Of a stretch of 64,000 nt of DNA, positions 1 through 64,000 are shown in pieces (position 1 is the first letter of the stretch; every line of letters starts with the position of its first letter). The DNA comes from Callorhinchus milii (lineage: Eukaryota), in NCBI RefSeq assembly GCF_018977255.1, contig NW_024704742.1:120034001-120098000 (forward strand), written 5' to 3'. The position numbers and the translations under genes are program-made. The notes beneath the pieces were generated by a model, which worked only from the letters and a program-made list of their open reading frames with translations, was not told the DNA's origin and did no database searches.

Positions 1-1200
1 ATATTCATTGCTATTTAGCTGCCTGTGTACTTCTAAGAGATATTGCTGTCTGTCCATGATTACAATACTGCTGCCTTTGTCTGCTGGTTTCATGACAATA
101 TCAGGGCATTCCCTGAGTTCCACTAATGCTCGTCTTTCCCTTTTTGTCAGGTTTTGGTTTAGTCTCTTTTGAGGTAGCCTCCCTACCGCTGCCATCGTCT
201 TGTCCCTTAATGTTAGTAGTTTGGGGTTTATCTGGTTATCGCTAGGGGTCCACCCAGCCGGCTTTGTAAAACTTGTTTGCCTGTTGTCGTCTATCCTCTC
301 AAATACTTCTGGGTTATGAAAGAAGTCACGCAGTTTGACCCTTCTAAAAAAAATTCTTCTAGATCCTGGCTCAATTTTGGTCGGCAGGGATTATCAGTAG
401 GCACAAATGTCAGTCCTTTATTTAATACGCTAGCCTGTGCCATTGTAGGCGTGAATGCCTGGGAGACGGTAAGAAAGGTTTATCCCCAGGCCCAGGTCCT
501 ACTTTTCTGGGGCTCCTGTGCTTATTAGTTTAAATGTGCTGACCAGTGTTTAATCATGGTCTGGGCTGTGTCTTTTGTCCAATGTATTTTGTTCCCTGTT
601 CTACCCTGAATTGTTTGGGTGGGATTGCCGGAATGCCCTGTTGTTTATTTTTTATAAATGCATTGACTTCTTCTAGTGTGACCCTCTCGGATGTTCGCAG
701 ATCCGGGCTGAAATTAATTTCCGCGACCTGGATTTAGGCGTTAGGAAAGTAGTTTTGCCCTTTTCACCGTGGCTTGCAGCTGTTTAGTCGCAGTCTTTGG
801 CTGCTGACTCTGGTTGTGGATATCGATTGAGAACATGACTTTGCGAGTTTTGTGGCAGGGCTGAGTCCCGCTCAACAAGCAATCTATATGGTGGAAGTTT
901 GCCTCTGGAAAAGCGTCTACTTGTGTCGCTATTAGGACAACTCCTTATCTTTGTCATGTTCTCATCTCCAATTATCATTACCGGCCTACTGGGTTTTAAC
1001 ACCCAGTCTGACCTTTTTCTGTCACGCAGTTTGACCCTTCTAAAAAATTCTTCTAGATTCTGGCTCAATTTTAGTCGGCAGGCGTTATCAGTAGGCACAA
1101 ATGTCAGTCCTTTATTTAATACGCTAGCCTGTGCCATTGTAGGCGTGAATGCCTGGGAGATGTTTATAATGTTTGTCCCCAGGCCCAGGTCCCGCTTTTA
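1..1200 (-). mobile_element. Penelope-like element (Neptune-type) fragments: SGNH-like ORF remnant plus two copies of the RT-ORF N-terminus
   Basis: ORF 784-1137 begins AQASVLNKGLTFVPT (PLE N-terminal L-x-KGL-x-F-x-P motif), followed by RPVMIIGDEN (GDS-like block). Segment ~323-525 is repeated at ~1021-1197. Confidence 0.7.
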
Positions 1201-1507
1201 GGTTAGGTTAGGGTTAATAATGAGGATAAGGTTTTTTTGGGTCCAGGTCAGGTGTTGGGGTTTAGTTATTCGCTGGTCTAGTCTGTTTTACTGGGTGTTT
1301 AATCTCTCCGTGTCACTATCCGTAACTTCTTGATCCAGTCCCTCTTTCTTTCCCCTGTACTATGGTCCATGCCCATGACTTCCATTGATTCCTCCCCATC
1401 TACAAAATTCTATAAAATGTTTGTTTATTAGTTTGTCCCTATATTTAATGACACTGAGGTGGCCCATGAGCTCTGTGCGAAATGTATTTCCCATTTCCAC
1501 AATATCT

Positions 1508-1570
1508 AAGCGCTTTGGGATGTCCTCCCGACGTGAAAAGCGCTATATCAAATGCAAGGATTATTATTAT
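1508..1570 (+). mobile_element. 3' tail fragment of the tRNA/Deu-SINE
   Basis: aagcgctttgggatgtcctcccgacgtgaaaagcgctatatcaaatgcaagg(att)n is nearly identical to the SINE end at 53893-53963. Confidence 0.85.
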
Positions 1571-1574
1571 GTAA

Positions 1575-2332
1575 GATATGGCATCTTTTGCATCTAATTG
1601 CACATCTAATTGGTATAATTTTTCCAGCTTCTGTTTGGGCCCATGGGGGTGCCAGGTTACCAAGGAATTTGGACTTGATTCCCCTGAGGACTTGTTTAGT
1701 GTAACCCCCTCTGACTGCTGTAAACAGTGTTGTGGTTGCCCTCAAATCCTCCCAATTTGAGCAAATTCGGTGGAATGGTGTTAGGTGGGATTTGATCAGG
1801 CCCCGGAAGGTGTGTTGCGGGTGGTAGCTTTTAGTGTGTAGTAGCGCGCGTGTGTCCATTTCCTTAAAGTATACTTTTGTACCTAGTTTGTGGTTGTCGT
1901 CTTCCCTTTTGTACACTGTGGTGTCCAGGAAGTTTATCCTATATTTATCTGTTACTGCCTTTACTTTAATAGAGCGGTGGTGGTTGTTTAATATGTTCAT
2001 AAATCCCTGGAAATATGTGTCTGTGTCCATACGTCAAATATTTTGTCCAGGTACCTGTGATAAGAAATTGGGAGCTTGGAGTAGTTCTGGAGAACATTAT
2101 TCTCTCATTCCGCCATATAAATGTTTGCATAGGCCGGGGCAAATTTTTGCCCATCGCCGTGCCCTTCACCTGAAGATAGAAATCCCCATCAAACTCAAAG
2201 TCATTTGTGGTGAGGCCCAGTTTCAGTCATTTTATCAGCTGGTCTTACTCGGTTTGGATATTGTGCCTGGGAGATGTTCACAATGTTCGTCCCCAGGCTC
2301 AGGTCCCGCTTTTCTGGAGCTCCTGTGCTTCT
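1575..2332 (-). mobile_element. Penelope-like element RT core/thumb fragment (degenerate)
   Basis: Frames give FYLQVKGTAMG, RYLDKIF (YLDD-like), INFLDTTVYK, TKVYFKEMDTRALLHTKSYHPQHTFRGLIKS. Frameshifted. Confidence 0.85.
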
Positions 2333-4668
2333 TACAACTACTACTACTTGGATTTATATAGCGCACTCCACGCCAGATGGCGTCTCAGAGCCCTTCACAG
2401 TAACAGATCACGAGGCCGAGCCAGGGGGAGGGGAAGGAAGGTGACCAAAAGCACGGTCGAAGAGAAAGTTCTTCAGCCGAGATCTGAAAGTAGGAAGAGA
2501 GGGGGCGAGGCGAAGGGTGTGAGGAAGGGAGTTCCAGAGTCTCGGGGCAAAGTGGCTGAAGGCACGGCCGCTGAGAGTGGAGCGGAAGACTCGGGGGACG
2601 AGGAGGAGGCCAGACCCGGTGGAATGAAGGCAACGGGCAGTGTTGAGAGGAGGTCAGAGAGGTAGGGGGTTGCAGATGACTGGAGGGATTTGAAGACAAG
2701 GGTGAGGAACTTGAAGTCGATCCTCTCTGGGACAGGCAGCCAGTGCAGTCTGGCAAGGACTGGGGTAATCGGGGAACGGAGTTTGGTGTGGATAAGAATG
2801 TGGGCGACAGAGTTTTGTATGACCTAGATTTTATGGATGGTAGTGGAGGGGAGACCGGCGAGGAGGGCGTTTGAATAGTTCAGCCGAGAGGTGACAGAGG
2901 CATGGACCAGTGTTTCAGCGGCTTTTGGAGTGAGGTGTTGGCGGAGACGGGCATTGCGTCGGAGGTGGAAGAAAGCGGTACTGGTGAGGGACCGGATATG
3001 GGGGAGGAAGGACAAAAGGGGATCAAACCTGACGCCTAGGTTGCATACGGGTTCAGAGAGGTTCAGGGGGAGGTCGGGTAGGTGGAGGAGGTGAGAACCG
3101 TGTGATTTTAGACATTGACGAGAGCCAAAGAGTATGGCTTCCATCTTGTCAACGTTCAGCTGTGTTCATCCAACTCCTGATGTCTGACAGGCAGGCTGAC
3201 AGAACATCAGGGGACTGGAGGTCGCAAAGTGAGGTGGAAAAATAGAGTTGGGTGTCGTTCGCATACATATGGAAGTGTACACCCTGTCTGCGGATGACAT
3301 CCCTAAGAGGGAGCATATCTATCAGAAAGAAGAGGAGGCCAAGGATGGATCCTTGGGGTACCCTGCAGGTAACCAGGTCAGAGCGGGTGGAGAAGCCGTT
3401 TGTGCAGATGTCCTGCTGGTGGTTCGTGAGGTAGGACTCGAACCAGGCGAGTGCGGTCCCACTGAGGTGGATGACAGAGGAAAGACGGTGGAGGAGGGTG
3501 GCGTGATGGACTGTGTTGAACGCGGTGGAGAGGACAAGAAGGCAAAGGGAGCCCTGGTCACAGATGGAGAGGATGTCATTTGTGACTTTCACAAGTGCAA
3601 TCTCTGTACTGTGGGCAGGGCGGAAACCGGACTGGAGGGGTTTGAAGAGGGAGTGGGAAGAGAGGTATACGCAAAATTGATTTGCAACAACGCATTCCAG
3701 GACTTTTGCGAGGAAGGGCAGGTTTGAAATAGGGCGGTAGTGGCTGGGGCTTGAGGGATCTAGGGAAAGTTTTTTGAGGAGGGGATGATGACAGCAGTTT
3801 TGAGGGGGGCAGGGACTGATCCAGAGGAGAGGGACTGGTTGATGGCTTCAGCCATTAGTGAGTAGAGGAGGGGGAGCTGGGTGAGCAGTAAGTTGGTGGG
3901 GAGGGTGTCGAGGCAGCAGGTGGTGGGTTTCATTGAGGTGATGGTGGGTGAGAGGGAGGAGGGAGAGATGGGGAGGCAGGAATGTAGGATTAGGGTTGTG
4001 GTAGGAACTGATGATGGGGATGGTGAGGGGGATGGAGAGGAGGTGGTGGTGGGTGACAAGAGGCAGGAGGATGAGGCTGCCTTGCGGATGTTGTGTATTT
4101 TGGATGAAAAGAAGTCCACGACCTCTTCGCACTTGGCATTGGATATGGAGATTGAGGGGGCCTGAAGGGGCGCATGTAGGAGGTAGTAGGTGGTGGGGAA
4201 AAAAGGACTTTAGGATTGGTTTTAGCCTCCAAGATGATGTTGGAGTAGAAGGCTGTTTTTGCGTGTGTCAAAGAACGACGGTAGCTGTGGAGATGCTCGA
4301 ACTACAGTTGGCGGTGGACTGTCGGGCCAGTTTTCTGCCATCTGCGCTCGAGCAGCCGGGTTTGGGTTTTTTTGGCAGCAGAGATGATTGTTGTACCAGG
4401 GGGATTAGGTGAGTTTGGAGATGGTCCTGGATTTCAGGGGGCCAAGGGAGTTGGAAGGTAGAGGAGAGGCGATCATGGAGCAGCTGGACAGCTGCTTCAG
4501 CATCTCCGCAGGTGGTAGGTCAGAGGGATAGGATATTTGATGATGTGAGGGTCTCAGGGGGTAGCCTTTTCCATGTGTGGAAGAGAATGGTTGAGGGCTT
4601 GGTGGAGGAAAGAGGGATGTGAGAGGAGAAGGAGCTGAGGAAATGGTCCGAGATGGCCTTGTCATTCT
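2333..4668 (-). mobile_element. L2 LINE family B, decayed
   Basis: 3' stem-loop and (TAG)n/(TTG) tail at 2333-2400. RT fragments VPQGSILG, HMYANDTQLYF, AETLVHASVTSRLNY. Multiple frameshifts. Confidence 0.85.
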
Positions 4669-5092
4669 CAGTTTGAATGTCTGGACCAGTGTTTGATCAT
4701 GGTCTGGGCTGTGTCCTTAGTCCAATTAATTTTGTTGATTCTATCTTGTTTGACTCTAAACTGACTGGGATTGCCGGGATGCCCTCTTGTTTATTCACAA
4801 TAAATTTGTTAATTTCCTTTCTATCCAAGTTCTGGCTAAAATTAATTTCAGTGACCTGAATTTGGACATTGGGGAACCTTAGCCTTGCTCTCTTTATTAA
4901 GGCCTGCAGTTGTTTAATTGCAGTCTTTGGCTGCCCGACTATGGTTATGGATTCCAAGTGAGACTATGACTTTCCAGGTTTCCTGGAAGGGCTGTGTCCT
5001 GCTTAATAAGTTATTCACATAATGGAAATTTGCCTCTGGAAAAGCCTCCACGTGTGTCCTTATTGGGACCAAACACTATCTTTGAAAGGTTA
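4669..5092 (-). mobile_element. PLE-associated SGNH/esterase-like ORF fragment
   Basis: Frames give AFPEANF...KVIVSLGI...ARLRFPNVQIQVTEINF. Homologous to 530-1010 and duplicated at 17576-18000. Confidence 0.55.
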
Positions 5093-7063
5093 TTCATAGA
5101 TTCATAGAATATTACGGCACAGAAGGAGACCATTCGGCCCATCGAGTCTGTGCTGGCTCTTTGACAGAGCAAGTCACTTCCACTAACCCCAATCACCAGC
5201 TTTCTCCCCATAATCCTGCAAACCCGTCTTCCCCAGATACCTATCCAGTTCTCTCTTAAAAGCTGTTAGCGAATCGGACTTCACTGCCCTTTCAGGCAGA
5301 TCATTCCAAATTCGAACAACTCGCTGAGTGAAAAAATTTCTTCTATCGTCCACTCTGCTTCTTTTGGTAGATATCTTAAGACTGTGACCACGGGTCACAG
5401 ACACACCTGTCGAACCCAGTTACGATGTGCGATTGCTCTTGGTGACCTGAAACTCAACACGGAGTCAGTGCGGCATTCACATTACAAGCTTTATTACTCA
5501 TACATATATGGGGTGCAGAGCAGTAGCAACAACCTTCTTTTAGTGTTGCTCCCTGCACTGCACACCAACTAGGTGAAACATCTCACCTTTATACAGATCT
5601 CATTGTACCATGGGTCAATCAACAGTCACGAGGAGACATTCCAACTTGGTTACATTTCGACATGTACTGTCTCGTGACGGGATGTCTGCTTTTGTGTGAC
5701 CTTTGGGACAACATGAGACAATAACTCTATCCTTCATTATTGGGCACATACTGATAAAACATGATTAGACAATACAATTGCTGATGCTGCTAAACAATAT
5801 CAGAACCCGGTACTGATACCAGACATGATACCAGAATTCGGTACTGATACCAGACATTTGTTATCCATATCGAATGTCTACCGGGTAAACCATTAAGCTG
5901 AATTTAAACAATTTCAAAATACTTGTCACGAGCGTCCGTCCTCTTACGTGCTAAGCTTTACAATAACATGCTTGACCTTACTTGCTCCTTTTGGCCTCTC
6001 ATACATATGGCCTGCTTGATTGCTAACTTGCACAATTTGCTAAAATGCTGTATTCGCTTTCCACACACCTACCAGCGGAAACAGCTTTTCCCTATCTCGC
6101 CTGTCGAAACCTTTCATGATCTTGAAGACCTCTATCAGGTCCCCGCGTAACCTTCTCTGCTCTAATGGGAAAAGTCCTAACTTCTCCAGCCTGTCCTCAT
6201 AGCTAAGGTTCCCCATTCCTGGTATCATTCTCGTGAATCTCCTCTGCACCCTTTCCAGTGCCTTAATGTGCTTCCTGAAGTTAGGTGCCCAGAACTGGAT
6301 GCAGTACTCCATCTGAGGCCTAACAGGCATTTTGTATAGATTAACCATAACCTCCCTAAGATCCCTACCAGAGATCACCACCTTGGATGTTCTGGACTTG
6401 AGTTTGCTCTCCAGCTTTTGATACTTGCCCTGCAGCATCTCAGCTCTTTTACCAATATCGTGGGTCCCCACATGGACCACGACTTCTGGACATTCTCCTT
6501 CCCCCCCCAAAGAATCTTGTCCATGCGCTCTGAAGTCCACTGCTGTCCTCACGAGAGGCTTCCACGCTCTCGATAGCTAATGTTGAGTACCGATTAGAGA
6601 CTGGTACTCTGTTGGGGGTGCTCTGCCTTGAACAAGCCCTCTTCTTGCCCCGTCGCACTGTCACCCAATCACTTTTAGCATGAATGAAGGGTGGCTGTGT
6701 GTTGGGCTCCTCTGGGAGTGGTCCTTTTCTTGAACTCTGACCTCCCGATAGCTCCAGTACCCCTCTCTCATGGCTGCTATACAGGATGGGCTGCTATAAC
6801 CGAGTCCTAGGGCAGTGAGGGTCTCCTCCACCATGCTGTCCAGGAACCTCTCACTGTCCCTGATGGAGCGCAGTGTCTGCACCTGAGACTCCAGCTCAGC
6901 TATTCTAAGTTGGAGCTTGTTCAGTTGCAGACATTTGATGCAGATGAAGTCACCTGGGCTTAGGTTGCCCTCCATCAACTCCCACATACCACATTCCTCA
7001 CACATCACCAGCCAGGCCAGTATCTATCTCCTCTTCGTTCCCCTTAGATATATAACCTGCACC
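5093..7063 (-). mobile_element. CR1 LINE, internally deleted (ORF1 joined to ORF2 C-terminus), interrupted by a solo LTR
   Basis: ORF1 zinc motif CEECGMWE..FICIKC and esterase VVVHVGTHDIG. ORF2 end EYCIQFWAP...RRLRGDLIEVFKI...TRGHSLKI...FFTQRVVRIWN. (TCTATGAA)2 tail at ~5093-5108. Confidence 0.9.
5408..6065 (-). mobile_element. ERV solo LTR with 4-bp TSD
   Basis: TGT...ACA termini with TSD CACC (5404-5407 / 6066-6069). Homologous to the ERV-A LTRs. The CR1 frame EKLFPLVG|VSVTRGH resumes across it. Confidence 0.92.
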
Positions 7064-7818
7064 TGTAGAGTTGTAACTTTTTTGTTCGTCCCAACCGTCG
7101 TCTTGCAAACAGACCACACACCGTGGATACAGCCAAAGTAAGATTTAATTGCAATTGCAAGAGCTGATTCAAGAGCAGTCAACAGTCTCTAAGAAGAGCA
7201 CCAGACAGTCAAAAGAATGAGCTGCCGATGGTCAGTTAAAGCTGCCTTTTTATACCCAAAAAGTGCTGAAGTTTGCAATACATACAAAGGCAGTAAAAAT
7301 AGTATTATCAATCATGTGGCTCCAACAACTATTCAAATGGTGATGTCAATCAATCCATATCTTTTAACAAGGTTAAATGTTTTCTACTGATTAGTCTCTA
7401 TTCATGCTGATTATTATTCTTTAAGAGTTAAGGAAATACAATTGTCATAGAGTATGTACCTGATTAATACCGTTGTCTAAAATACACAAGATATATTCTA
7501 AAGCTAACTAACAAGAATGTAACCTTTAAATTTATAACACAGAGTAAGTAATAATGAAGGAAGGGGCCCCAGGTTAGGGGAGGATTCAGGGACGTTTGAG
7601 ACATAAGCTTATCTCCAGATGGTGTTTGTGTCAAACAATGTCTCATTTATTTCAAGGTTTGCAGAAGTTACTGTTTCCCTGCTTCTGTGAAATGCCCAGA
7701 TAAGGATGCAGCTGGCATTGTGCCGAGTCTGGGTTTCCCAGGACTTGCTTCTGTTCATCTAATCGTTGGTTAAAAGGTATAAAATTATTCCTAGGTATAA
7801 AAGATTTTTTTTTCTACA
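7064..7818. mobile_element. LTR-like element (solo, no matching TSD)
   Basis: Inverted termini TGTAGA...TCTACA, AT-rich and non-coding. The two flanks are unrelated elements. Confidence 0.55.
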
Positions 7819-8863
7819 ATCTCACACGGGGAGGAGCATGGCTTCTCCAATGTCGGATCTTTTTGGTGGGACATATACAAGGTGGACCATAGTCACTTCC
7901 CTATTTCGTTGCATATCTGGGTTAAAATCGATGGGTAACCATTGGCGGATTTGATCCTTGGAGACCAAAGAGGGTAAGCAACCTGCTTCCAGGTCATTAA
8001 GGTGTTGGCGGTACTGCTTGATCATGTAAGATCCTAACATACTACATGATGTAGCCTTGGATAGCTGTTGCTCTCCCACCTGCTGATTGTTTGATACAAT
8101 TAAATTGTTGACTGAGGTGTTTATATTCTGTAACTTTTGAGAAAAACCCAACGCTGAATCCAGGATGAGCAGTTGCTCCTTCAGCATATTGTCAGTAGTC
8201 ACCCACTTTTGGCCCCAAATTTGCTGAAGTTGCACCCTTAAATCTACCTGATGACTCATGAGGGATTCTACATCTACTCGATTCCATGTGGAAAAGGTCC
8301 CGGTGGCTACTACACCAACCCATTCTGCCACGTCCCTCTTATTACGTTTGGGCGCTAATCCCCCTTGGTAAACCCCTCCCTCCCAAAGCCATCCCTTTAT
8401 TCCTCTGTAGGAATTTCTGAAATATTTCTTTTTGTAGGGCATGGAAGAAGTTTTGATAGCTCTCTGAGTAAAGTGAGGTTAAAATGTAACGTAACTGGTA
8501 CATATTTGCTCTGCACTTTAGAATACAACACTTTGTACGCGCTCTCCCGCTAGTCTATTTTCCGGGCCTGGTTTGGTCTCTGGGCATGTCACATTTTCTT
8601 CTGTGATCGGTATTACTCGCATTCGAATGGTCGTGATGTCCGTGTAAGCATATGTTCCTTCTGGGTCTTATATGGAGCAGTTATAGTAGCCTTGGTGCCG
8701 GTGGTACACATATGGGAACATCAAGTCCTGTTCTTGGATTGTCGGAATACCTTGGCGCGTTCCTTGCATCAGCACTCCCCACGTTCCGATCGGGGTATCA
8801 TCAGGGGTTCTGATGCGACTTCGCTGCAACTGAACGGTGTCGTTACTTGGACTCTTAATGATG
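7819..8863 (-). pseudogene. env: Env-like class I fusion protein fragment (lokiretrovirus-like), 3'-truncated
   Basis: ORF 7822-8442 has a furin site KRNKR, a hydrophobic fusion-peptide-like segment (DVAEWVGVVATGTFSTWN) and a heptad-rich region. It lacks the gamma-type QNRxxLD/CX6CC motifs seen in the ERV envs here. Confidence 0.6.
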
Positions 8864-11796
8864 CAACAACAAGATCCCACTTACAGAGCGCCTTTCACGT
8901 TGGGAGGACGTCCCAAAGCACTGGACAGTTGGGTCAGGACCCGAGCAGGGGGGAAATGGTCAGGGCAAGGGAGGGAGCGAGGAGGGGGGAAATGGTCAGG
9001 GGGAGGGAAGGGAAGAGAGGAGGCGTGGAGGGGGTAGAGAGTTGAGAGGGGAGCTGAAGGCACGGTCAAAGAGAAAGGTCTTGAGACCGGCCTTGAAGGA
9101 GGAAAGGGAGGAAGCAAGGCGAAGGCACTGGGGGATAGAGTTCCAGAGCCTCGGGGCTGAGAGGCTGAAGGCCCGGCCACCGATGGTAGGGCGGTTGGGG
9201 CGGGGGATGTGGAGCAGACCGGAGCCAGAGGAACGGAGGGTACGGGCAGGTAGGTAGGGGGATAGTAGGTTGGAGAGGTAGGAGGGAGCGAGGCCGTGAA
9301 TGGCCTTGAAGGTGAGGATGAGGATCTTGAATTCGATCCTCTGGGGGATGGGGAGCCAGTGGAGGCGAGCGAGGGTGGGAGTGATGTGGTCCCGAAGCCT
9401 GGTGCGGGACAGTACACGAGCTGCAGAGTTCTGAATGACCTGCAGCTTGTGGAGGGAGGTGCCGGGAAGGCCGGCGAGGAGAGAGTTCCCATAGTCCAGC
9501 CTTGAGGTGATAAAGGCGTGGACCAGAGTTTCAGCAGCGTGAGGGGTGAGGTAATGCCGTAGTCTGGCGATGTTCCGGAGGTGATGGAAGACGGTGCCAG
9601 TTGTGGCGCGGATGTGAGGGAGAAAGGACAGCTCAGGGTCGAACAGAACCCCGAGGTTCCTGACTGGCTTTGAGAGGTGGAGAGTGCAGCCTCGGATGCT
9701 GATGCTGTCAGCGCCTGAGGTGCGGAGGCGCTGACGTGAGCCAATCAGGAGGGCCTCAGTTTTATGCACGTTGAGCTGAAGAAAGTTGTCGCTCGTCCAG
9801 GACTCGATGTCGGACAGGCAGCTGTCAGGACATCAGTGGTCGTGGAGTTGAGGGTAGAGGAGGAAAGGTAGAGTTGGGTGTCATCCGCATACATGTGGAA
9901 GTTAACCCCATGTCTGCGGATGATGTCACCGAGGGGGAGCATATAGAGGGTGAAGAGGAGGGGACCGAGGACAGAGCCCTGAGGGACACCACATGAGACA
10001 GTGCGGGGCGTGGAGGAGAAGCCATTTGTCGAGACAAAGTGAAGACGGTGAGAAAGGTACGACCTAAACCACTCAAGGACAGGGCCTTGAAGGTTGAGGT
10101 GGGAGGACAAGCGGTGGAGGAGGATAGCGTGGTCGACCGTATCGAATGCTGCCAATAGGTCGAGGAGGCAGAGGGAGCCCTGGTCGCAAATGGTCAAGAT
10201 GTCATTGGTGACCTTGACCAGGGCGGTTTCTGTGCTATGGGCAGCACGGAAACCCGACTAAAGGAGTTCGAATAATGAATGGGTGGAGAGGAAAGAGCGC
10301 AGCTGGGAGACGACAACTTGCAAGGACCTTGGACAGGAAGGGGAGGTTGGAGATGGGCCGGTGGCTTGATAGCTGTGACGCATCAAGGGAGGGTTTTTTT
10401 CAAAGTGGGAGTGATGATGGCAGTTTTTAGGGGAATAGGAACAGAGCCAGAGGAGAGGGACAGGTTGATGATGTCTGTGATAAGTGGGGCAAGGAGGTGG
10501 AGCTGAGATAAGGAGTGGAGTGGGGATGGGGTCAAGGGAGCAGGTGGTGGGTTTCAGGGACAGGATGAGTTTGGTGACAGAGGGTTGGGAAACGGGTTCG
10601 AAGGTGTGTAGGGGAGGATGGGTAGGAGTCGGAGTGTGGGAGGGAAGGGGTGGGGGGTGGGTGGAAGTTGGAGGGGGAGTGACCGCAGAGCGGATTCCCT
10701 TGATTTTGGATTCAAGGAAATCCAGTGTCTCCTCGCAGTGAAGGTTGGAGGAGATGACCTGCGCGGGGGGGACGGAGGAGTCGGGATGTGGTAGAAAACA
10801 GAAGCCTGAAGTTGTTCTTCGCCTCCAGGATTATCCTGGAGTAGAAGGACGATTTGGCTGAGGCTAGAGTGGAGCGGTAGATTTTGAGGAGGTCCAGCCA
10901 GATTTGTCGGTGGACCGTTAGGCCAGATTTGAGGCAGGTGGGTTCAGCGGCCCACACCTGGCTCTTCAGTGAGCGGAGGTGGGTGGTGAACCAGGGGGAG
11001 GAGCGAGAGTAGGAGACAGTTTGGGAGGTGATGGGGGCAAGAGTGTCGAGTGTGGAGGAGAGGGTGTTGTGGAGGAGGGTGAGAGGAGAAGAGGGGTCAG
11101 TGAGGGTTGTAGGCCAGAGGGAGAGGAATTCAGAGGACTCCAAGGCAGCGGTTAGGGATTGTGGGGCTAACTTCTTCCAGGGGCGGTAGAAGATGGTGGT
11201 GACACTGAGGCCCCGGGTGATCAACAAATCGAGTGGGTGGCCATGACTGTGAGTGCAATAGTTGATGTGGAGGGAGAGGTTGAGCGAGGAGAGCAGGGAA
11301 GAGAAGTCCAAGGAGTGGAGCAGGAGGGGGTGAAGTGCAGGTTGAAGTCGCCCAGGATGATGAGGCGATCAGAGCAGAGGCAGAGAGATGTAAGAAGTGT
11401 CGAAATATCAGAGATAAAGGTGGGAGAGGTGTTAGGGGCCGGTATAGGAGGATGATTTTGAGTGAGAGGAAGGAGGGGTGGGAGAGGGTGAGGTGCTCGA
11501 TAGAGGGGAACGAGCCAGAGGAGTAGGGGGATAGGGCAAGTGGTGTCCTTGAGATAAGGGCTACACCACCGCCACGGCGGTTGGGGCGGGGGATGTGGTG
11601 GGCAGTGTAGCCGGGTGGTGTGGCCTCCGTGAAGGGGAAGGTGTCACCTGGGGTGAGCCAGGTTTCCGTTAAGGCCATGATGTCAACGCTCTCATCAAGG
11701 ATGAGATCATTGATGACCAGGGCCTTGTTACAGAGGGAGCGGACGTTTTGTATTCTGATGTGGAGGGAGCGGTTGACAGAAGGGTGTGGAGGGAGG
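8864..11796 (-). mobile_element. L2 LINE family A, near full length, frameshifted
   Basis: (CAA)n tail on plus. APE endonuclease (QNVRSL, ALTETW, GGGVA) and RT ([18 protein letters not shown]). Confidence 0.95.
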
Positions 11797-13495: not shown

Positions 13496-13531
13496 CTTAC
13501 AACAACTACTACTACTTGGATTTATAGAGCG

Positions 13532-17314: not shown

Positions 17315-17316
17315 TC

Positions 17317-53963: not shown

Positions 53964-53964
53964 A

Positions 53965-55255
53965 GAGGCCCTCTCACAGAGAAGGGAGAGAGAGAAGGAA
54001 AGAGAAAGGAAGGGACTGCTGGATAGCTCCGGTCTGATTGGTCCTCAGGGAGGGAGAGGTTTTTAGGTACAAGTTGAGAGGGCGAAGGAAGACAAAAAGG
54101 AGAGAATGTGTTAGTTGATGGGTTAAAGAAGTGATAGTGGCATAAGACAAAAAGGGGGAAGGTTGAAACAAAACTGGAGAAGAGGTGTTAATAGTACAGA
54201 ACCAGGTAATACACCAGAGAGAGACAAAGAATGTCTGGGGTGATGATTGTGATGATAACCGAAGATAACTCTTCTGATAACAGAAAGAAGGGGGAAGGTG
54301 AGCTGCTATGGTCTGAAGTGGCTGAAATCAATATTGAGGTCACAGGGCTGTAGGGTCCCTAGCAGATAGATAGATGCTGTTCCTCAAGTTTTCGCTGTGG
54401 AGACTGGAAGATCAGGGTTGATCTTGCGTACAGAACAGAGGTGTTCTACAAATCGGTCACCCAATCTGCACTTAGTCTCCCCAATATAGACGAGACTACA
54501 CCGTGAGCAGCGGATACAGTATGCTACATTGTAAACCGCTGTCTTACATGGAAGCTGTGTTTGGGGCCTTGGATAGTGGTCTGGGAGGAGGTGAAAGGGC
54601 AGGTATTACATCTCCTGTGCTGGCATGGGAAGGTGCCAGGGAAAGGAGAGCAGCTGGTAGTGCTGATGGCGGAATGAACGAAGGAATCTCGGAGGGAACG
54701 ATCCTTTCGGAAAGAAATATGTGTTTGGTGGATGAGTCATGCTGGAGTTGCCGGAAATGTCGGAGAATGGTGTGCTGAATCTTGAGGCTGGTGGAGTGGT
54801 AGGTGAGGACGAAGGGGATCCTATTATGGTTCTGGGATTGGGGGAAGAGGTGAGGGCAGATATGCGGCATATAGGGCAGACATGGTCAAGGGCCTTGACT
54901 ATTACTGTCGATGGGAATCCTTGGTCAAGGAAAAATTAGGACATCTCGGTTGCTCTGGCGTGGAAGGTTGCATTGTCAGGGCGGAGGCAGAGAAACTGGG
55001 AAAACGGGATGACGTCTTTGCAGGAGGCTGGGTGGGATGAGATGTAATCAAGGTAGCTGTGAGTGTTGGTGGGCTTATAGAAAATGTCTGTGGATAGTCT
55101 GTACCTGACGAGGAGATAGTGAAGTCGAGCAAGGGAAGGGAAGAGTCGGAGGTGGTCCGTGTGAATTTTATGGAGGGGTGGAAGCAAAATTTATAAATGC
55201 TTCTAACTCACTGCGAGAGCAGAAAGCGGCCCCGACACAGTCATCGATGTACCAT
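53965..55255 (-). mobile_element. Second Penelope-like family: RT C-terminus + GIY-YIG endonuclease remnant
   Basis: WYIDDC at ~55240, LSTDIFYKPTNTHSYLDY..SHP..CK, IPFVLTYH, LYIGETKCRLGDRFVEH at ~54440-54490. Confidence 0.88.
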
Positions 55256-55719: not shown

Positions 55720-56945
55720 GAGTACACGAGCTGTAGAGCTTTGGATGATCTGCAGCTTGTGAAGGGAAGAGTTGGGAAGGCCGATGAGGAGGTAGTTTCC
55801 TTAATTGAGCCTTGATGTGACGAATACGTGTGTAAGGGTTTCAGCAGCCTGAGGGGTGAGGCAGTGGCGGAGTCTGGCAATGTTGCGGAGGTGGTGTAAG
55901 GCAGTGCCGGTCATGGCGCGGATGTGGGGGAGAAATGACAGTTCAGGGTCAAACAAGACACCCAGGTTCCTGACTGGCTTAGTGAGGTTGAGTGTGCAGC
56001 CGTGAATGCTGCTTTTGGCAGAGTTGGGTGTCATCTGCATACATGTAGAAATTTACCTCATCTCTGCGGGAGGCATCACCAATGGGGGGGCATGTAGAGG
56101 ACGAAGAGGACAGAGCCCTGAGGAACACCGCACGAGATGGTGCCGGGGCTGGAGGAGAAGCCATTTGCTGCGACTAAGTGGAGGCAGTGTAAAGGGTAGG
56201 ACCTGAACCAGTCAAGGACAGAACCTTGAAGGTTGAGTGGGAGCAGAGGCACTGGAGGACGATTCAATGGTCCACAGTGTCAAAGGCAGTGGAGAGGACG
56301 AGGAGGCAAAGGGAGCCCTGGTCGCATATGGTCAGGATGTCATTTGTGACCTTGACCGGAGCAGTTTCCGTGCTGTGGGCAACACAGAAAGCTGATTGGA
56401 GGGGCTCATAAGAGGGAGTGGGAGGAGAGGAAAGAGCGAAGCTGGGAGGCAATGGCTCTCTCAAGGACCTTGGACAAAAAAAGGAAGTTTGAGATGGGCC
56501 AGTAGCTGGATAGCTGTGATGAGTCAAGGGAAGGTTTCTTCAAGGATAGTGACTGTTTTGAGTGGGGTAGGAACAGTGCCAGATTACAGGGAGAGGTTGA
56601 TGCTGACTGAGTAGTGGGGCAAGGAGGTGGAGCTGGGATTTAAGGAAAGGATTGGGGATGGGGGTCCAGGGAGCAGGTAGTCAGCTTCATGGAGGATATG
56701 GTGGTGATGACAGAGGAGGGGTTGACAGGTTCAAAGGTGTGGAAGGAGGGATGGTTAGTTGTCGGAGTGTGGGCGGGCGGGGTGATAGGGAGGGGTTGAG
56801 GACTCCAGGGCAGCAGAGAGGGATTGCAGTGAGATCTTCTTCCGCAGGCGGTAGAAGATGGTGGTAGATTTGGAGGCAGTGGGGAGAGGGAGATAGGAGT
56901 TGAGGGAGATGAAATGGTGGTCAGAGATGGCCTTGTCGGTAATGG
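55720..56945 (-). mobile_element. Older, diverged L2 copy with several internal deletions
   Basis: [40 protein letters not shown]. Confidence 0.85.
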
Positions 56946-59331
56946 TTTTTCAGCAGCGTTAGGGGTGAGATAGTGCCGTAGTCTGGCAATGTTCCGGAGG
57001 TGGTGGAAGGCGGTGCCAGTTGTGGCGCGGATGTGGGGAAGAAAGGACAGCTCAGGGTCGAACAGAACACCGAGGTTCCTGACTGGCTTTGAGAGGTGGA
57101 GAGTGCAGCCTTGGATGCTGATGCTGTCAGCGCCTGAGGTGCGGAGGCGCTGACGTGAGCCAATCAGGAGAGCCTCAGTTTTGCCCACGTTGAGCTGAAG
57201 AAAGTTGTCTCTCGTCCAGGACTCGATGTCGGACAGGCAGGCTGTCAGGACATCGGTGGTCGTGGAGTTGAGAGTAGAGGAGGAAAGGTAGAGTTGGGTG
57301 TCATCCGCATACATGTGGAAGTTAACTCCGTGTCTGCGGATGATGTCACCAAGGGGGAGCATGTTGAGGGTGAAGAGGAGGGGACAGAGCCCTGAGGGAC
57401 GCCGCACGAGACAGTGTGGGGGCTGGAGGAAAAGCCGTTAGTGGAGACAAAATGAAGATGGTGGGAGAGGTAGGACCTGTTGGATATCAAGAAAGGTCAC
57501 CCAGCATTCCGATTAGGCAAAATCTGTTAAGCCAAACTTTACTAGTTCCATAAAGTTACACCATGGAGGGATTACAATAAAGCAATACTACCGCGGGTCC
57601 GGACGTTCAGCAGCCGAGGTTCCAATCTGTCTTGTCTGGGTATTCAAGCTTTTTGATCTTCCATCAAGTCTTCCCTCGTGCTCCTCCGATCTTTTCTTTC
57701 TGTTTTTCCTTCTTTGTACTCTCATCCCACTCCCTCTATACCTTCGTCCAATCTCTTATCAGTCGTTTACAACCCGTTATTAACGTATCCAATCATGTTT
57801 CCTTCAACCCTCTTTCCTTGTACTGACTCCATATGTTCCATGACCTCTCACCCCTTTTGACGCATTGTTAGTATGTTAATTCTGTACCCTTATGCTAACA
57901 CATCTAAACCACTCAAGGACAGGGCCTTGAAGGTTGAGGTGGGAGGACAAGCGGTGGAGGAGGATAGAGTGGTCGACCGTATCGAATGCGGCCGATAAGT
58001 CGAGGTGGACAAGGGGGCAGAGGGAGCCCTGGTCGCAGATGGTCAAGATGTCATTAGTGACCTTGACCAGGGCAGTTTCTGTGCTATGGGCAGCACGGAA
58101 ACCCGACTGGAGGGGTTAAAAAAGTGAATGGGTGGAGAGGAAAGAGCGCAGCTGGGAGGCGACGACTCTTTCGAGAACCTTGGACAGGAAGGGGAGGTTG
58201 GAGATGGTCCGGTAGCTTGATAGCTGCGACGCATCAAGGGAGAGTTTTTTCAGTGTGGGAGTGATGGTGGCAGTTTTGAGGGGAATGGGAACAGAGCCAG
58301 ATCTGTGCTGGGGGCAAGGAGGAGTCGGGATGTGGTGGAGAACAGAAGCCTGGGGTTGTTCTTCGCCTCTAGGATTATCCTGGAGTAGAAGGACGACTTG
58401 GCCGAGGCTAGAGTGGAGCGGTAGGTTTTGAGGAGGTCGAGCCAGATTTCCCGGTGGACCGTGAGGCCAGATTTGAGGCAGGTGAGTTCAGCGGCCCGCA
58501 CCTGGCTCTTCCGTGAGCGGAGGTTGGTGGTGAACCAGGGGGAGGAGCGAGTGTAAGAGACAGTACGGGAGATGATGAGGGCAAGAGAGTCAAGTGTGGA
58601 AGAGAGGGTGTTGTGGAGGAGGGTGAGAGCAGAAGAGGAGTCAGTGAGGGATGAAGGCCAAAGGGAGAGGAGTTCAGAGGACTCCAAGGCAGCAGTTAGA
58701 GATTGTGGGGGTAACTTCTTCCAGGGGCGGTAGAAGATGGTGGTGAGTCTGGTGGAGGTAGGGAGTGGGGTGGAGGTGGTGAAGGTGATGAAGTGGTGAT
58801 TGGAGATGGCCTTATCGGTAATGGTGACATCTGAGACACTGAGGCCCCGGGTGATCACCAAATCAAGTGGGTGGCCGTGAACGTGAGTGGTGGAGTTGAT
58901 GTGGAGGGAGAGGTTGAGCGAGGAGAGGAGGGAGGAGAAGTCCGAGGAGGTGGAGCAGGAGGGAGTGAAGTGCAGGTTGAAGTCGCCCAGGATGATGAGG
59001 TGATCAGAGCAAAGGCAGAGAGTTGTTAGTAGGGTAGAAATGTCGGAGATGAAGGTGGGAGAGGTTTTAGGGGGCCAGTAGAGGAGGAGGTTTTTGAGTG
59101 AGAGATGGGAGGGGTGGGAGAGGGTGAGGTGCTCAAAAGAGGGGAAAGAGCCAGAGGAGTAGGGGGATAGGACAAGTGGTGTCCTTGAGATAAGGGCTAC
59201 ACCACCGCCACGGCGGTTGGGGCGAGGGTTATGGTGGGAGGTGTAGCCGGGTGGTGTGGCCTCCGTGAGGGGGAAAGTGTCGCATGGGGTGAGCCAGGTT
59301 TCTGTTAAGGCCATGATGTCAACACTCTCAT
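56946..59331 (-). mobile_element. L2 family A, truncated at both ends and interrupted by an LTR-like insert
   Basis: Endonuclease ORF 58250-59314, RT 56946-57407, internal deletion at ~58300. Confidence 0.9.
57478..57900. mobile_element. Solo-LTR-like insertion
   Basis: TGTT...AACA ends and L2 collinear on both sides. TSD is imperfect (gacc/catc). Confidence 0.6.
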
Positions 59332-62300
59332 CAACAACAACAAGATTTCATTTATAAAGCGCCTTTTGCGTCAGGAGGACATCCCAAGGCGCTGCACAGT
59401 TGGGTCAGGACCCGAGCAGGGGGGGAAATGGTCAGGGTGAGGGGAGGGAAGGGAGGGAGCGAGGAGGGGGGAAATGGTCAGGGTGAGGGGAGGGAAGGGA
59501 GGGAGCGAGGAGGGGGAAGAGAGTCGAGAGGGGAGCTGAAGGCTCGGTCAAAGAGAAAGGTTTTGAGACCGGCCTTGAAGGAGGAGAGGGAGGAAGCAAG
59601 GCGAAGGCACTGGGGGATGGAGTTCCAGAGCCTGGGGCTGAGAGGCTGAAGGCCCGACCACCGATGGTAGGGCGGTTGGGGCGGGGGACGTGGAGCAGAC
59701 CGGAGCCAGAGGAACGGAGGGTACGGGCAGGTAGGTAGGGGGATAGTAGGTTGGAGAGGTAGGAGGGAGCAAGGCCGTGAATGGCCTTGTAGGTGAGGAT
59801 GAGGATCTTGAAATCAATCCTCTGGGGGATGGGGAGCCAGTGGAGGCGAGCGAGGGTGGGAGTGATGTGGTCCCGAAGCCTGGTGCGGGACAGTACACGA
59901 GCTGCAGAGTTCTGAATGACCTGCAGCTTGTGGAGGGAGGTGGCGGGAAGGCCGGCGAGGAGAGAGTTCCCATAGTCCAGCCTTGAGGTGACAAAGGCGT
60001 GGACCAGGGTTTCAGCAGCGTGAGGGGTGAGGTAGTGCCGTAGTCTGGCGATGTTCCGGAGGTGATGGAAGGCGGTGCCAGTTGTGGTGCGGATGTGAGG
60101 GAGAAAGGACAGCTCAGGGTCGAACAAAACGCCGAGGTTCCTGACTGGCTTTGAGAGGTGGAGAGTGCAGCCTTGGATGCTGATGGTGTCAGCGCCTGAG
60201 GTGCGGAGGCGCTGACGTGAGCCAATCAGGAGGGCCTCGGTTTTTCGCACGTTGAGCTGAAGAAAGTTGTCTCTCGTCCAGGACTCGATGTCGGACAGGC
60301 AGCTGTCAGGACATCGGTGGTCGTGGAGTTGAGAGTAGAGGAGGAAAGGTAGAGTTGGGTGTCATCCGCATACATGTGGAAGTTAACTCCATGTCTGCGG
60401 ATGATGTCACCAAGGGGGAGCATATAGAGGGTGAAGAGGAGGGGACCGAGGACAGAGCCCTGAGGGACACCACATGAGACAGTACGGGGGGTGGAGGAGA
60501 AGCCATTCGTCGAGACAAAGTGAAGACGGTGAGAAAGGTACGACCTAAACCATTCAAGGACAGTGCCTTGAAGGTTGAGGTGGGAGGACAAGCGGTGGAG
60601 TAGGATAGCGTGGTCGACCGTATCGAATGCTGCCGATAGGTCGAGGAGGACGAGGAGACAGAGGGAGCCCTGGTCACAGATGGTCAGGATATCATTGGTG
60701 ACCTTGACCAGGGCAGTTTCTGTGCTATGGGCAGCACGGAAACCTGACTGAAGGGGTTCGAAAAGAGAATGGGTGGAAAGGAAAGAGCGCAGTTGGGAGG
60801 CGACAACTCTTTCCAAGACCTTGGAGAGAAAGGGGAGGTTGGAGATGGGCCGGTAGCTTGATAGCTGCGACGCATCAAGGGAGGGTTTTTTCAGGGTGGG
60901 CGTGATGGTGGCAGTTTTTAATGGAATGGGGACAGAGCCAGAGGAGAGGGACAGGTTGATGATGTCAGTGATATGTGGGGCAAGAAAGTGGAGCTGGGAG
61001 ATAAGGAGTGGAGTGGGGATGGGGTCAAGGGAGCAGGTGGTTGGTTTTAGGGATAGGATGAGTTCAGTGACAGAGGGTGGGGAAACGGGTACGAAGGTGT
61101 GTAGGGGAGGATGGGTAGGAGTCGGAGTGTGGGAGGGAAGGGGTGGGTGGTGGGTGGAAGTTGGAGGGGAAGTGACCGCGGAGCGGATTCCCTTGATCTT
61201 GGATTCAAGGAAATCCAGCATCTCCTCGCAGTGAAGGTTGGAGGAGATGACCTGCGCGGGGTGGCGGGGGGGACGGAGGAGTCGGGTTGTGGTGGAAAAC
61301 AGTAGCCTGGGGTTGTTCTTCGCCTCCAGGATTATCCTGGAGTAGAAGGACGACTTGGCCGAGGCTAGAGTGGAGCGGTAAATTTTGAGGAGGTCCAGCC
61401 AGATTTGTCGGTGGACCGTTAGGCCAGATTTGACACAGGTGCGTTCAGCAGCCCGCACCTGGCTTTTCAGTGAGCGGAGGTGGGTGGTGTACCAGGGGGA
61501 GGAGCGGGAGTAGGAGACAGTGCGGGAAGTGATGGGGGCAAGAGTATCGAGTGTGGAGGAGAGGGTATTGTGGAGGAGGGAGAGAGGAGAAGAGGGGTCG
61601 GTGAGGGTTGAAGGCCAGAGGGAGAGGAGTTCAGAGGACTCCAAGGCATCGGTTAGGGATTGTGGGGGTAACTTCTTCCAAGGGCGGTAGAAGATGGTGG
61701 TGGGTCTGGTGGAGGTGGGGAGGGGGGTGGAGGTGGTGAAGGAGATGAAGTGGTGGTCAGAGATGGCCTTGTCGGTAATAGTGACATCCGAGACACTGAG
61801 GCCCCGGGTGATCACCAAATCGAGTGGGTGGCCGTGACTGTGAGTGGGGGAGTTTATGTGTAAGGAGAGGTTGAGTGAGGAGAGCAGGGAAGAGAAGTCT
61901 GTGGAGATGGAGCAGGAGGGGGTGAAGTGTAGGTTAAAGTCGCCCAGGATGATGAGGCGATCAGAGCAGAGGCAAAGAGATGTGAGGAGTGTTGAAATGT
62001 CAGAGATGAAGGTGGGAGAGGTTTTAGGGGGCCGGTAGAGGAGGAGGATTTTAAGGGAGAGGAATGAGGGGTGGGAGAGGGTGAGGTGCTCAAAGGAGGG
62101 GAAAGAGCCAGTGGAGTAAGGGGATAGGGCAAGTGGTGTCCTTGAGATAAGGGCAACACCACCGCCACGGCGGTTGGGGCGGGGGATGTGGTGGGAGGTG
62201 TAGCCGGGTGGTGTGGCCTCCGTGAGGGGGTAGGTGTCGCCTGGGGTGAGCCAGGTTTCTGTTAAGGCCATGATGTCAACGTTCTCATCAAGGATGAGAT

Positions 62301-62888
62301 CGTTGATGACCAGGGCCTTGTTGCAGACGGAGCGGACGTTTTGCAGTCCGATGTGGAGGGAGCGGTTGACAGAAGGGTGTGTGGGAGGGGAGGGGTGTCC
62401 AGGTTGTGAAGCTGGGGCGGGGGGCGATGGGGATAAGGGAGGAGAGGTTGGCTCCCCTGGTTGTGGGAGGGTCAAGTGGGTATAGAAGGCGAGGCGGACA
62501 TAGCAGGAGAGATGCAGAGGGGCGAGGGTTTAGGGGGAGGGAGGAGTTGGGAGAGAAGGAGTTGACTCGGGTCAGAACGGCAGCCATAACGCGCACGCGG
62601 GGACCGGGAGCGAGCGGTCAGATGGATGACATTAGCCCATAGGTTGGGGCTGGGGCAGCCAACCCAGCAGGAACATGGTGTTCCCTGATGCGAGCCCTAG
62701 GGTGGGCGCAGAGGATTTTTTTTTTTTGCTTGCACACTCCTGAATCTAAACTATGACGTCAGCGGTTCCCCCGCTCCACCCTTCCCCCCCATCCCCCACC
62801 CCGAGCTGTACTCCCTGCCGCCTCGAGCTTTATGCTACCTGAAGGCAGGCCCAGCCTCCTCCCCGCGTTCTCCTGCCACCGCCTCCCG
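59332..62888 (-). mobile_element. L2 family A, full length, best-preserved copy (single-ORF type)
   Basis: 749-aa ORF 60226-62475 (endonuclease to YADD) and ORF 59432-60250. Tail, stem-loop and 5' UTR are present. No ORF1. Confidence 0.96.
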
Positions 62889-63299
62889 AGGAAAGCAGAA
62901 ATAGGAGACAGGGAGGATGGAGATAGAGCAGGACAGAGCGGGGGAGTTGCATGAAGGGGGACATTTTGAGGGAGGGCCAGCTCGGGTTGGGTGGCTGCAG
63001 CCAAGATGCACACGCTGGGACGAGAAGCGGCGGGTTAATGGGACATTGTCAGCCTGCAGGAGGCTTTGGGGACTAGAGGTGGCGCAGAGTGGGGAGGCCA
63101 CTCATTGTAGGTAGTTGTTGGTCTTTTGGGTGTGACGTCACGATGATGTTACTTGTGATTTTTCTACTGATGCCCCGCTGTGCCTCGGCTCCTCCCCGCG
63201 CTGCCCCCACCCCGAATCAACGACTGCTTACCTCGATCGGGCTTTAAACACTTGGTTAGGCCTCGGCTCCTCCCTGCACTGTCCCCGCTCCTCCCTCCG

Positions 63300-63915
63300 A
63301 ATAACCTTCTAGCATAACCTTCTGTTCCTTTCTCCCGCATGTACCTACCTAGTTTTCCCATAAATACATTCCACATTCCCACTATTCTCTGTGTGAAGAC
63401 ATTTCTTCTAACTTCCCTATTTGATCTATTTGTGACTATTTTATATTGATGGCCTCTGGTTTTGGTCTCCTGCACAAGTGGAAACATCTTCCTGTGGAAA
63501 CGTCTATCATCAGGTCACCTCTTACCCTCTTTTCAGAAGAAGAGTCCAAGTATGTTCAGCCGTTCCTGATAGGTATAACCTCTCAGTTCTGGGATCATTC
63601 TTGTGAATCTCCTTTGCACCCTCTCCAGTGCCTCCACATCCCCATCTATAATGTGGGGACCAGAACTGCACACAGTATTCTAAGTGTGGTCTAACCAAGG
63701 TTCTAGAGAGGTTTACCATAACTTCCCTGCTTTTCATTTCTATCCCTCTAGAAATGAACCCCAATGCCTGGTTTGCTTCTTTTATGGCCTTATTAACCTG
63801 GGTTGCTACTTTTAGCAACCCAGGTTAATAAGGCCATAAAAGGACCTTTTACAAGGTCCCTTTGCTTCTCTACCCATTTCGATTTTTATTTTCCAGAATG
63901 TATGTGACTATTTTC
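63300..63915 (-). mobile_element. CR1 ORF2 3' fragments
   Basis: TRGHQYKI...NVFTQRIVGMWN; LVRPHLEYCVQFWSPHY. Confidence 0.88.
63781..63840. repeat. Perfect inverted repeat with 28-bp arms and a 4-nt loop
   Basis: tttatggccttattaacctgggttgcta-cttt-tagcaacccaggttaataaggccataaa. Confidence 0.97.
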
Positions 63916-64000
63916 CAGGATGTATATCACAACAACAAGCCCGTATGTTTGGCTTCATCATGCGTTCACTAGTTTGCTGGCCTTTTCTCATCTACAACTC

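Follow-up and report, generated by a model that had tools for sequence, protein, structure and literature searches.

A 140-kb island of transposable elements with near-uniform strand orientation in Callorhinchus milii and its tentative reading as a uni-strand piRNA source

The subject of this report is a stretch of 64,000 nucleotides of Callorhinchus milii (C1:120,034,001-120,098,000 in the 991.5-Mb assembly; hereafter the window), which is the core of an island of transposable elements (TEs) about 140 kb long. In the coordinates of the window, which are used throughout, the island extends from about -4,600 to +136,000 (C1:120,029,400-120,170,000), and within it long interspersed nuclear elements (LINEs) and endogenous retroviruses (ERVs) lie almost exclusively on the minus strand. 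A first-pass annotation, made from the letters of the window, had proposed the locus as a candidate flamenco-like cluster, i.e. a uni-strand source of PIWI-interacting RNAs (piRNAs). In the following, we summarize the anatomy of the island, its strand bias, its borders and the independence of its insertions, all of which are matters of observation, and we weigh the ways in which the bias may have arisen.

Most prominent in the window is a LINE family designated LINE-A, which accounts for about 37% of the sequence. It encodes an apurinic/apyrimidinic endonuclease (APE) domain and a reverse transcriptase (RT) domain and ends in a (TTG)n tail. Eight LINE-A insertions are present in the window, all of them on minus, and the island holds 16 copies with a length of up to 3.2 kb. 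The autonomous elements of the window, including their open reading frames (ORFs) and long terminal repeats (LTRs), are as follows:

2448-4663, minus: LINE-B, with RVT_1 at 3152-3847 and a (TAG)n(TTG)n tail; 66% identical to LINE-A (blastn)
5408-8478, minus: ERV fragment, cut by the LINE-A copy at 8864; its LTR-like piece at 5408-6073 has the same orientation as the ERV1 LTRs and is 78-82% similar to them
8864-11796, minus: LINE-A copy 1, with APE and RT and an internal deletion
13532-17137, minus: LINE-A copy 2, almost full-length; it entered at an older tail of the LINE-B type
18670-20087 and 24914-27132, minus: LINE-A copy 3, split by ERV1, with consensus coordinates collinear across the ERV
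20087-24913, minus: ERV1, with integrase, MLVIN_C and env; it lacks the gag-pro-RT region
27637-32123, minus: ERV2, with RT, RNase H, integrase and env (TLV_coat and a C-terminus resembling Phlebo_G2_C), truncated on its 5' side where it meets LINE-A copy 4
32123-35128, minus: LINE-A copy 4, without the last ~550 bp of the 3' end
35077-38800, minus: ERV3, with gag zinc knuckle, protease, RNase H, integrase, MLVIN_C and env; RT was not among the domains found
40222-41227, minus: ERV4 fragment, with protease and the N-terminal part of RT, abutting LINE-A copy 5
41204-42868, minus: LINE-A copy 5, a 3' half with 96% identity to the young copy (copy 8)
45043-46995, minus: fragment of the 5'/ORF1 region of a CR1-like LINE, direct to GDSL-esterase ORF1 regions at 89.2-90.8 kb and 114.7-116.4 kb
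48617-52024, minus: LINE-A copy 6, inserted into an unnamed repeat (48331-48617 / 52024-52249)
55721-56946, minus: LINE-C, 75-82% identical to LINE-A, with RVT_1 in the ORF 56643-57437
56948-59334, minus: LINE-A copy 7, with a 426-bp insertion and an internal deletion
59329-62529, minus: LINE-A copy 8, young, with an open 767-aa frame containing APE and RT, head to tail with copy 7

The strand bias of the window is apparent from several kinds of counts. Stop-to-stop ORFs of at least 200 amino acids (aa) number 32 on minus and none on plus, and those of at least 150 aa 51 and 9, respectively. A Pfam scan covered 150 of the 154 window ORFs of at least 100 aa, the four shortest being left out. 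Retroelement matches were obtained for 31 of the 108 minus ORFs (RVT_1, Exo_endo_phos, rve, Integrase_H2C2, RNase_H, RVP, MLVIN_C and TLV_coat), and no Pfam match for any of the 42 plus ORFs. Among the plus ORFs of 60-99 aa, 150 of 169 were scanned (without the 19 shortest) and none had a match at E<=0.01, while eight of the 134 minus ORFs of this size had a Pfam match, six of these eight being clearly retroelement or viral. A blastn comparison of the window with itself returned 135 direct high-scoring segment pairs and a single inverted one of 59 bp. Insertions were counted by our own merging of the self-blast, Pfam and LINE blastn tables. All orientable autonomous insertions so obtained, namely eight LINE-A, one LINE-B, one LINE-C, one CR1-like 5' piece and four or five ERVs, are on minus, and for 14 out of 14 on minus the two-sided binomial p is 1.2e-4. 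The near-total minus orientation of coding TE fragments described in the first-pass annotation is thus borne out by ORF, Pfam and self-blastn counts alike. The annotation had also listed hAT and Penelope-like elements (PLEs) among the minus-strand fragments; for hAT no Pfam match was found on either strand of the window, and for PLE just a sub-threshold GIY-YIG match (E 0.0037) at 54387-54605 on minus. A possible PLE ORF at 54547-54885 had no usable match in the Atlas search.

To the right of the window the bias continues. Between 64 and 104 kb, Pfam retroelement matches occur in 18 of 53 minus frames and in none of 25 plus frames, and between 104 and 144 kb in 13 minus frames versus three plus frames, the latter from one LINE piece at 104.0 kb and another at 118.4 kb. 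Over the entire island, LINE-A is represented by 15 copies on minus and one on plus, other LINEs by about 11 and one, and ERVs by six and none. The final count comprises about 32 autonomous insertions on minus and two on plus (~15:1), from at least three LINE families and six or seven ERVs. The binomial test was calculated for 30 out of 32 on minus and gave p 2.5e-7 (the final count was 32 out of 34).

The extent of the island was determined from flanks of 100 kb on each side of the window, i.e. 264 kb in total. In bins of 8 kb, G+C content, the number of long ORFs (>=150 aa) and the minus bias climb together at about -4 kb and drop at about +132 to +136 kb. On the left side, the last LINE piece on plus is succeeded by the first one on minus between about -7.4 and -4.6 kb. 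Repeats between 64 and 136 kb align to window repeats over 31.1 kb in direct versus 6.8 kb in inverted orientation, and left-flank repeats over 7.5 kb direct versus 10.9 kb inverted. According to self-blast by zone, repeat pairs internal to the flanks are balanced, with 109 direct and 118 inverted pairs on the left and 37 direct and 41 inverted pairs on the right, and LINE fragments in the flanks, left flank included, are found in both orientations. Sequence with a second copy within the 264 kb makes up 63% of the island versus 23-24% of the flanks. The island is a discrete TE-dense domain of nested fragments, with sharp borders and unbiased DNA on either side, so that the bias described for the window, when set against its flanks and put to a binomial test, holds as a property of one ~140-kb domain. 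Such an extreme could in principle be a product of chance and ascertainment, as about 250,000 windows were scanned and extremes get flagged. We consider this hardly credible in view of the binomial p, of the discreteness of the domain between unbiased flanks, and of its coincidence with an independent anomaly, the enrichment of ERVs (p 1e-7) that is described below.

A bias of this kind carries weight to the extent that the insertions are independent of each other. The flanks downstream of five LINE-A 3' ends are unrelated, the truncation points and identities of the LINEs differ between copies, and the private divergence of the LINE-A copies ranges from 0.0 to 3.9%, copy 3 being the oldest (3.8%). 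The common junctions, flanks and truncation points that are expected of a tandem or segmental duplication array are not found here. As flanks, truncation points and ages differ, duplication does not explain the bias. The first-pass annotation was right in stating that insertions of different age and integration chemistry have the bias in common, since several LINE families and the ERVs are involved. One local duplication is present, in which 1607-2365 corresponds to 12769-13533 (97.7%) and 4407-5192 to 17317-18092 (95.2%). Furthermore, two copies of one host repeat are occupied at the same site, one by LINE-A copy 2, positioned precisely at an older tail of the LINE-B type, and the other by LINE-B. 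One duplication and two LINEs at an older tail mean that at most a couple of events are not independent. The repeat that is split by LINE-A copy 6 also occurs uninterrupted and inverted at 64.9-65.4 kb, and comparison with this intact copy shows an ~8-bp overlap, which indicates a target-site duplication.

These exceptions are the starting point of an explanation that requires no transcript at all and attributes the bias to insertion or survival, by priming at (TTG)n tails, replication direction, instability of inverted repeats or local duplications. The matching older-tail sites of LINE-A copy 2 and LINE-B, the evident local duplication and the head-to-tail arrangement of copies 7 and 8 fit such an origin, and with 16 LINE-A copies in the island, the longest of 3.2 kb, any inverted newcomer would form a large inverted repeat. 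However, at four of the five complete LINE-A 3' ends that were examined, the adjoining sequence is unrelated and is not a tail, and the duplication covers one or two items at most. ERVs, whose integration chemistry is different, still show a ratio of 6:0, short interspersed nuclear elements (SINEs) using the same LINE tail one of 3:3, and LINE fragments of the flanks run both ways. The same is true of a TE-rich comparison region of 40 kb on C12, with 18.3 kb plus-type and 6.7 kb minus-type sequence, which was picked for its three plus-strand LINE-A copies and thus not blind. On balance, an origin without a transcript appears rather improbable to us.

The LINE-A family looks currently active as judged from its sequences. 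A genome DNA search yielded 7,560 first-look candidates, among which copies on many contigs match the one at 59329-62465 at 97-99% identity, and within the island the most recent copies lie on minus without exception. Minus-strand LINE-A frames that are still open measure 913 aa (L022:4616-7354), 837 aa (L020:1756-4266) and 765 aa (L025:3458-5752), the private divergence of the respective copies being 0.7% for L022 and 0.0% for both L020 and L025. At the 5' end of LINE-A copy 2, an 88-bp unit occurs three times (17055-17316), which recalls the monomer-type 5' untranslated regions of some LINEs. Two LINEs of another family (L021:5874-6344 and L024:1366-2223, both on minus) carry a GDSL-lipase/esterase domain (Lipase_GDSL_2) upstream of APE and RT; we take this esterase-type ORF1 to be a CR1-like feature.

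The SINEs of the island behave differently from the autonomous elements. Both plus-strand items of the window that had been listed in the first-pass annotation are present:

1508-1570, plus: LINE/SINE tail stub of 63 bp, assigned by tail similarity
53637-53965, plus: tRNA-derived SINE, which runs from its tRNA head (left) to a LINE-type tail (right), as read directly from the sequence

The tRNA-derived SINE has ~55 nt of its 3' tail in common with LINE-A. SINE pieces with a LINE-A tail are unbiased in the island, with three on plus and three on minus (six in 140 kb), and the left and right flanks contain 15 such pieces in 96 kb and 14 in 28 kb, respectively. Per kb, the SINE is thus 4-12 times rarer in the island than in the flanks, whereas LINEs and ERVs show the opposite distribution. 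The difference in orientation is supported by a Fisher p of 0.046 when the SINEs are compared with LINE-A (15:1) and of 0.02 when they are compared with all autonomous elements, both values being derived from small numbers. The unbiased SINEs, which carry the LINE-A tail, argue against a preference of the insertion machinery and in favour of selection that acted after insertion, on elements that are long and bear signals.

The second anomaly of the island is its content of ERVs. Five integrase-bearing ERVs are observed in the 140 kb, where ~0.11 are expected from a genome search with one island integrase that gave at least 759 first-look candidates in 991.5 Mb. This excess has a Poisson p of 1e-7, or of 2e-4 if the true genome count is five times higher. 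At least three of the ERVs are env-bearing, as TLV_coat is found in ERV1, ERV2 and ERV3. The two LTRs of ERV1 (20087-20565 and 24382-24913) are 88.9% identical. In the ERV fragment at 5408-8478, a 218-aa env-like frame at 7825-8478 on minus has no Pfam match. Its nearest Atlas clusters are Baculo_F and paramyxovirus Fusion_gly or Hemagglutinin (score 0.95), and the frame may encode a retroviral env of the F type, which is class I fusion-like; with the low recognition in Atlas, this is to be taken as a lead only. The fragment may correspond to the element that the first-pass annotation had called 'loki-like'. That annotation had also placed the orientable solo LTRs on minus; the one LTR-like piece that was compared (5408-6073) is direct to the ERV1 LTRs, and the statement holds to this extent. 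In ERV2, the frame 27637-27909 on minus, just downstream of TLV_coat/HR1-HR2, matches Phlebo_G2_C (E 8e-8, 32.6 bits at a cut-off of 25) over the last ~65 profile positions, which is maybe a likeness of membrane anchors alone. Elsewhere in the genome, integrase matches are clustered at C29:498,000-543,000, C5:49-58 Mb and C2:117.91-117.93 Mb, which are possible further ERV-rich patches.

On its right side, the island meets a gene. TRAPPC13 is encoded on minus by eleven matched exons from 154,981 down to 137,454, which are 85-100% identical to the C. milii TRAPPC13 in UniRef (five of the eleven at 100%), and the right edge of the island lies 1-4 kb beyond the last coding exon, i.e. at the 3' end of the gene. 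The exon identities bear out the first-pass annotation in its guess that the host is a cartilaginous fish. A CpG island at 161.6-162.1 kb with a weak exon-1-like match inside is most likely the TRAPPC13 promoter. On the left side, no host domains were found in frames of at least 85 aa within the 100 kb next to the window. In human, TRAPPC13 presumably has SGTB as its tail-to-tail neighbour, and because of this gene order an SGT gene was sought to the left of the island. A search with tblastn and a hidden Markov model built from SGT proteins gave three weak pieces, which are the best three of 5,252 frames on both strands and which are all on plus, in protein order and within ~8 kb:

about -13.9 kb (L017:6121-6261), plus: SGT-like N-terminal piece, residues 30-48, E 0.004
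about -12.8 kb (L017:7194-7289), plus: SGT-like piece from the end of the TPR region, residues 183-195, E 0.54
about -5.8 kb (L018:4189-4332), plus: SGT-like C-terminal piece, residues 287-309, E 0.1, ending at about -5.7 kb, left of the island

This trace lacks the TPR core. With modest confidence, the three pieces can be interpreted as a decayed SGT-like gene, perhaps SGTB-like, that is convergent with TRAPPC13; if this is right, the island fills the gap between two convergent gene ends. Synteny with SGTB and NLN near the window was also considered and was rejected, as a genome Pfam search located SGTA_dimer and Peptidase_M3 together on C21 instead. Within the island, ORF and Pfam scans, which exons of less than 60 aa or non-coding exons would escape, revealed no plus-strand host exons, and the sequence gives no hint of the island being intronic to a coding gene. 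The hits of a CpG-island scan within the island are the bodies of young LINEs and a GC-rich minisatellite (L023:5365-5951, window 109,365-109,951) with a 27-bp unit in 21.7 copies (92% matching), which also gives spurious matches to DUF6330 and DUF1118.

Contigs of four runs of guessed kind (X1, X2, X3 and X5) were compared with positions 16001-36000 of the window. Those of run X1, which are strandless, are identical to the locus at 23055-23358, 27622-27821 and 35298-36000, the last one being a contig of 1040 nt that runs on past the compared stretch. Run X5, which is from the same study as X1, has no contigs in the ERV interiors.

A bias of ~15:1 that includes elements of mixed chemistries and ages, exempts SINEs and coincides with a discrete, ERV-rich domain argues for a long-lasting strand-specific constraint, and transcription is the obvious candidate for its source. 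A first possibility is transcription of the island from the minus strand, e.g. by read-through from TRAPPC13, which would make it a source of sense TE RNA or piRNAs or would merely lead to tolerance of co-oriented TEs. The last minus LINE fragment (133,392-133,804) lies 3.6 kb downstream of the end of the last coding exon of TRAPPC13 at 137,454, a position in keeping with read-through. Against this, read-through over 140 kb is unlikely because sense LINEs and ERVs carry their own terminators, and there is no known selective reason for the retention of sense copies alone. We therefore judge minus-strand transcription to be very improbable.

A second possibility is an ordinary long transcription unit on plus, such as a long non-coding RNA, a 3' extension of or read-through from the SGT-like gene, or an intron, in which purifying selection acts against sense LINEs and ERVs and no role in piRNA formation is involved. 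It is well documented that ERVs and LTRs within transcription units show an antisense bias, of 2-3-fold and up to 4-fold (PMC1794541, PMC3088655, PMC3517506). The unbiased orientation of SINEs in the island is what would be expected of elements with weak signals, and exons that are non-coding or shorter than 60 aa escape ORF scans. AATAAA/ATTAAA hexamers are also fewer on plus (93 versus 164 on minus in the island); this asymmetry exists because of the TE orientation and is therefore not independent evidence. What speaks against an ordinary transcript is the absence of matches among the scanned plus ORFs of the window (0/42 and 0/150), with just two LINE pieces and the minisatellite in the right part of the island, and the fact that the sole trace of a plus-strand gene stops left of the island while its right edge meets the 3' end of TRAPPC13 on the opposite strand. 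The bias is also high for introns (30 out of 32 gives p 0.007 against an antisense bias of 3:1 and p 0.03 against 4:1), and one would not expect LINEs and ERVs to build up in a functional intron to densities clearly beyond those of the flanks. Overall, an ordinary transcript is unlikely in our judgement, though it has to be taken seriously.

The best reading of the island, in our analysis, is a plus-strand transcript that is most likely a uni-strand piRNA precursor, and we hold it tentatively, as somewhat short of an even chance. According to this reading, a long plus-strand transcript would cross the island from left to right and would have to stay intact. Insertions with poly(A) and splice signals facing the transcript would be lost, whereas antisense insertions would be retained or even favoured, as they add antisense sequence. 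LINEs and env-bearing ERVs would in this way be kept over a long period almost only on minus. A transcript over a locus that consists of TEs only and is enriched in ERVs would most plausibly be a uni-strand piRNA precursor, i.e. a TE trap. The transcript, its direction and any piRNA output are what we infer here. Every structural prediction of a uni-strand cluster that was open to testing came out as for such a cluster. Of the flamenco-like reading in the first-pass annotation, the structural part has thus stood up (co-orientation, mixed ages, a discrete domain, an excess of ERVs and no plus-strand exon found), and the part concerned with transcript and piRNAs keeps the tentative standing given above.

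Several observations weigh against a piRNA precursor on plus and have to be set beside these arguments. The bias is not absolute, as plus-type patches are located at 64.2-65.9, 80.9-82.8, 103.9-104.9 and 117.6-119.2 kb. When 30 out of 32 is compared with the 4:1 antisense bias given for ALV-type ERVs in transcription units (PMC1794541), p is just 0.03. For the two LINEs inserted at an older LINE tail, orientation may follow tail homology and not selection. All TEs are co-oriented with TRAPPC13, so that minus-strand read-through, to which they would be sense, is conceivable. No promoter was identified at the left edge, where a CpG-island scan found no CpG island from -12 kb to 0. Finally, the search for a transcription-linked asymmetry in private LINE-A substitutions, which was underpowered, gave no significant result (on the plus strand, A>G 34 and T>C 22, p 0.5).

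In its most specific form, the proposal of a plus-strand piRNA precursor leads to a flamenco-like trap in a chimaera, i.e. a long-lived uni-strand piRNA source between convergent gene ends, perhaps driven by the SGT-like remains, that captures an active LINE family and env-bearing retroviruses in antisense orientation. We regard this as a possibility of a doubtful kind. If it is true, it would represent a genomic immune memory of such kind at the base of the jawed vertebrates. It would also be a vertebrate locus that matches the architecture of insect flamenco unusually closely, including the excess of env-bearing ERVs, and it would mean that TE strand bias alone can locate such loci in vertebrate assemblies without small-RNA data, as across Drosophila. 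If small RNAs confirm the precursor, it would be the first described piRNA cluster of a cartilaginous fish, within the literature searched. If the island is instead covered by an ordinary transcript, it would be a clean natural example of strong orientation selection on LINEs and ERVs, with their SINE partners spared.

Look-alike stretches were sought in other genomes, and none turned up. Among the known systems, flamenco of Drosophila, which has a size on the order of 100 kb or more, and the flam-like loci are closest to the island. Common to all of them are a discrete TE-only locus, nested and truncated elements, nearly one orientation, an excess of env-bearing ERVs and accumulation over a long time. 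LTR content and strand bias, evaluated in 100-kb bins, had served to predict the flam-like loci before small-RNA sequencing confirmed their piRNA output, mostly from one strand where this is described (PMC10643416). The bias of these loci is carried by Gypsy-type ERVs only (PMC10643416), whereas that of the island is carried mostly by LINEs. The host is an insect with Gypsy elements in the case of flamenco and a chimaera with ERVs of the gamma type or F type in the case of the island. For the flam-like loci, piRNA output, somatic expression and a defined promoter have been demonstrated, whereas for the island they are hypothetical.

The intragenic antisense bias of LINEs and ERVs (PMC1794541, PMC3088655, PMC3517506) is similar to that of the island in that long elements with terminators and splice signals are depleted in sense orientation and short SINE-like ones much less. 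The island is unlike it in that no enclosing gene was found by the scans described above, the bias is ~15:1 versus the usual 2-4:1, and the TE density is raised, not lowered.

With respect to vertebrates, three publications describe cytoplasmic PIWI pathway genes of the elephant shark except Pnldc1, together with Piwil4 (PMC7618676), a strong strand bias of piRNA output in the piRNA clusters of cichlids (PMC11753138) and, as an 'sRNAome' entry in the table of a review, public small-RNA data for ovary and testis of C. milii (PMC8538981). The germline piRNA clusters of vertebrates (zebrafish, cichlids, axolotl, mouse and chicken) are strand-specific gonadal sources of TE-derived piRNAs, to which the island would be comparable. 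The near-total co-orientation of TEs over 140 kb is more extreme than what is known of most vertebrate piRNA clusters. We know of no description of piRNA clusters in cartilaginous fish, and none was found in the literature searched. Uni-strand clusters and TE traps as such are already known; a member from a cartilaginous fish would, if confirmed, be a new addition to them.

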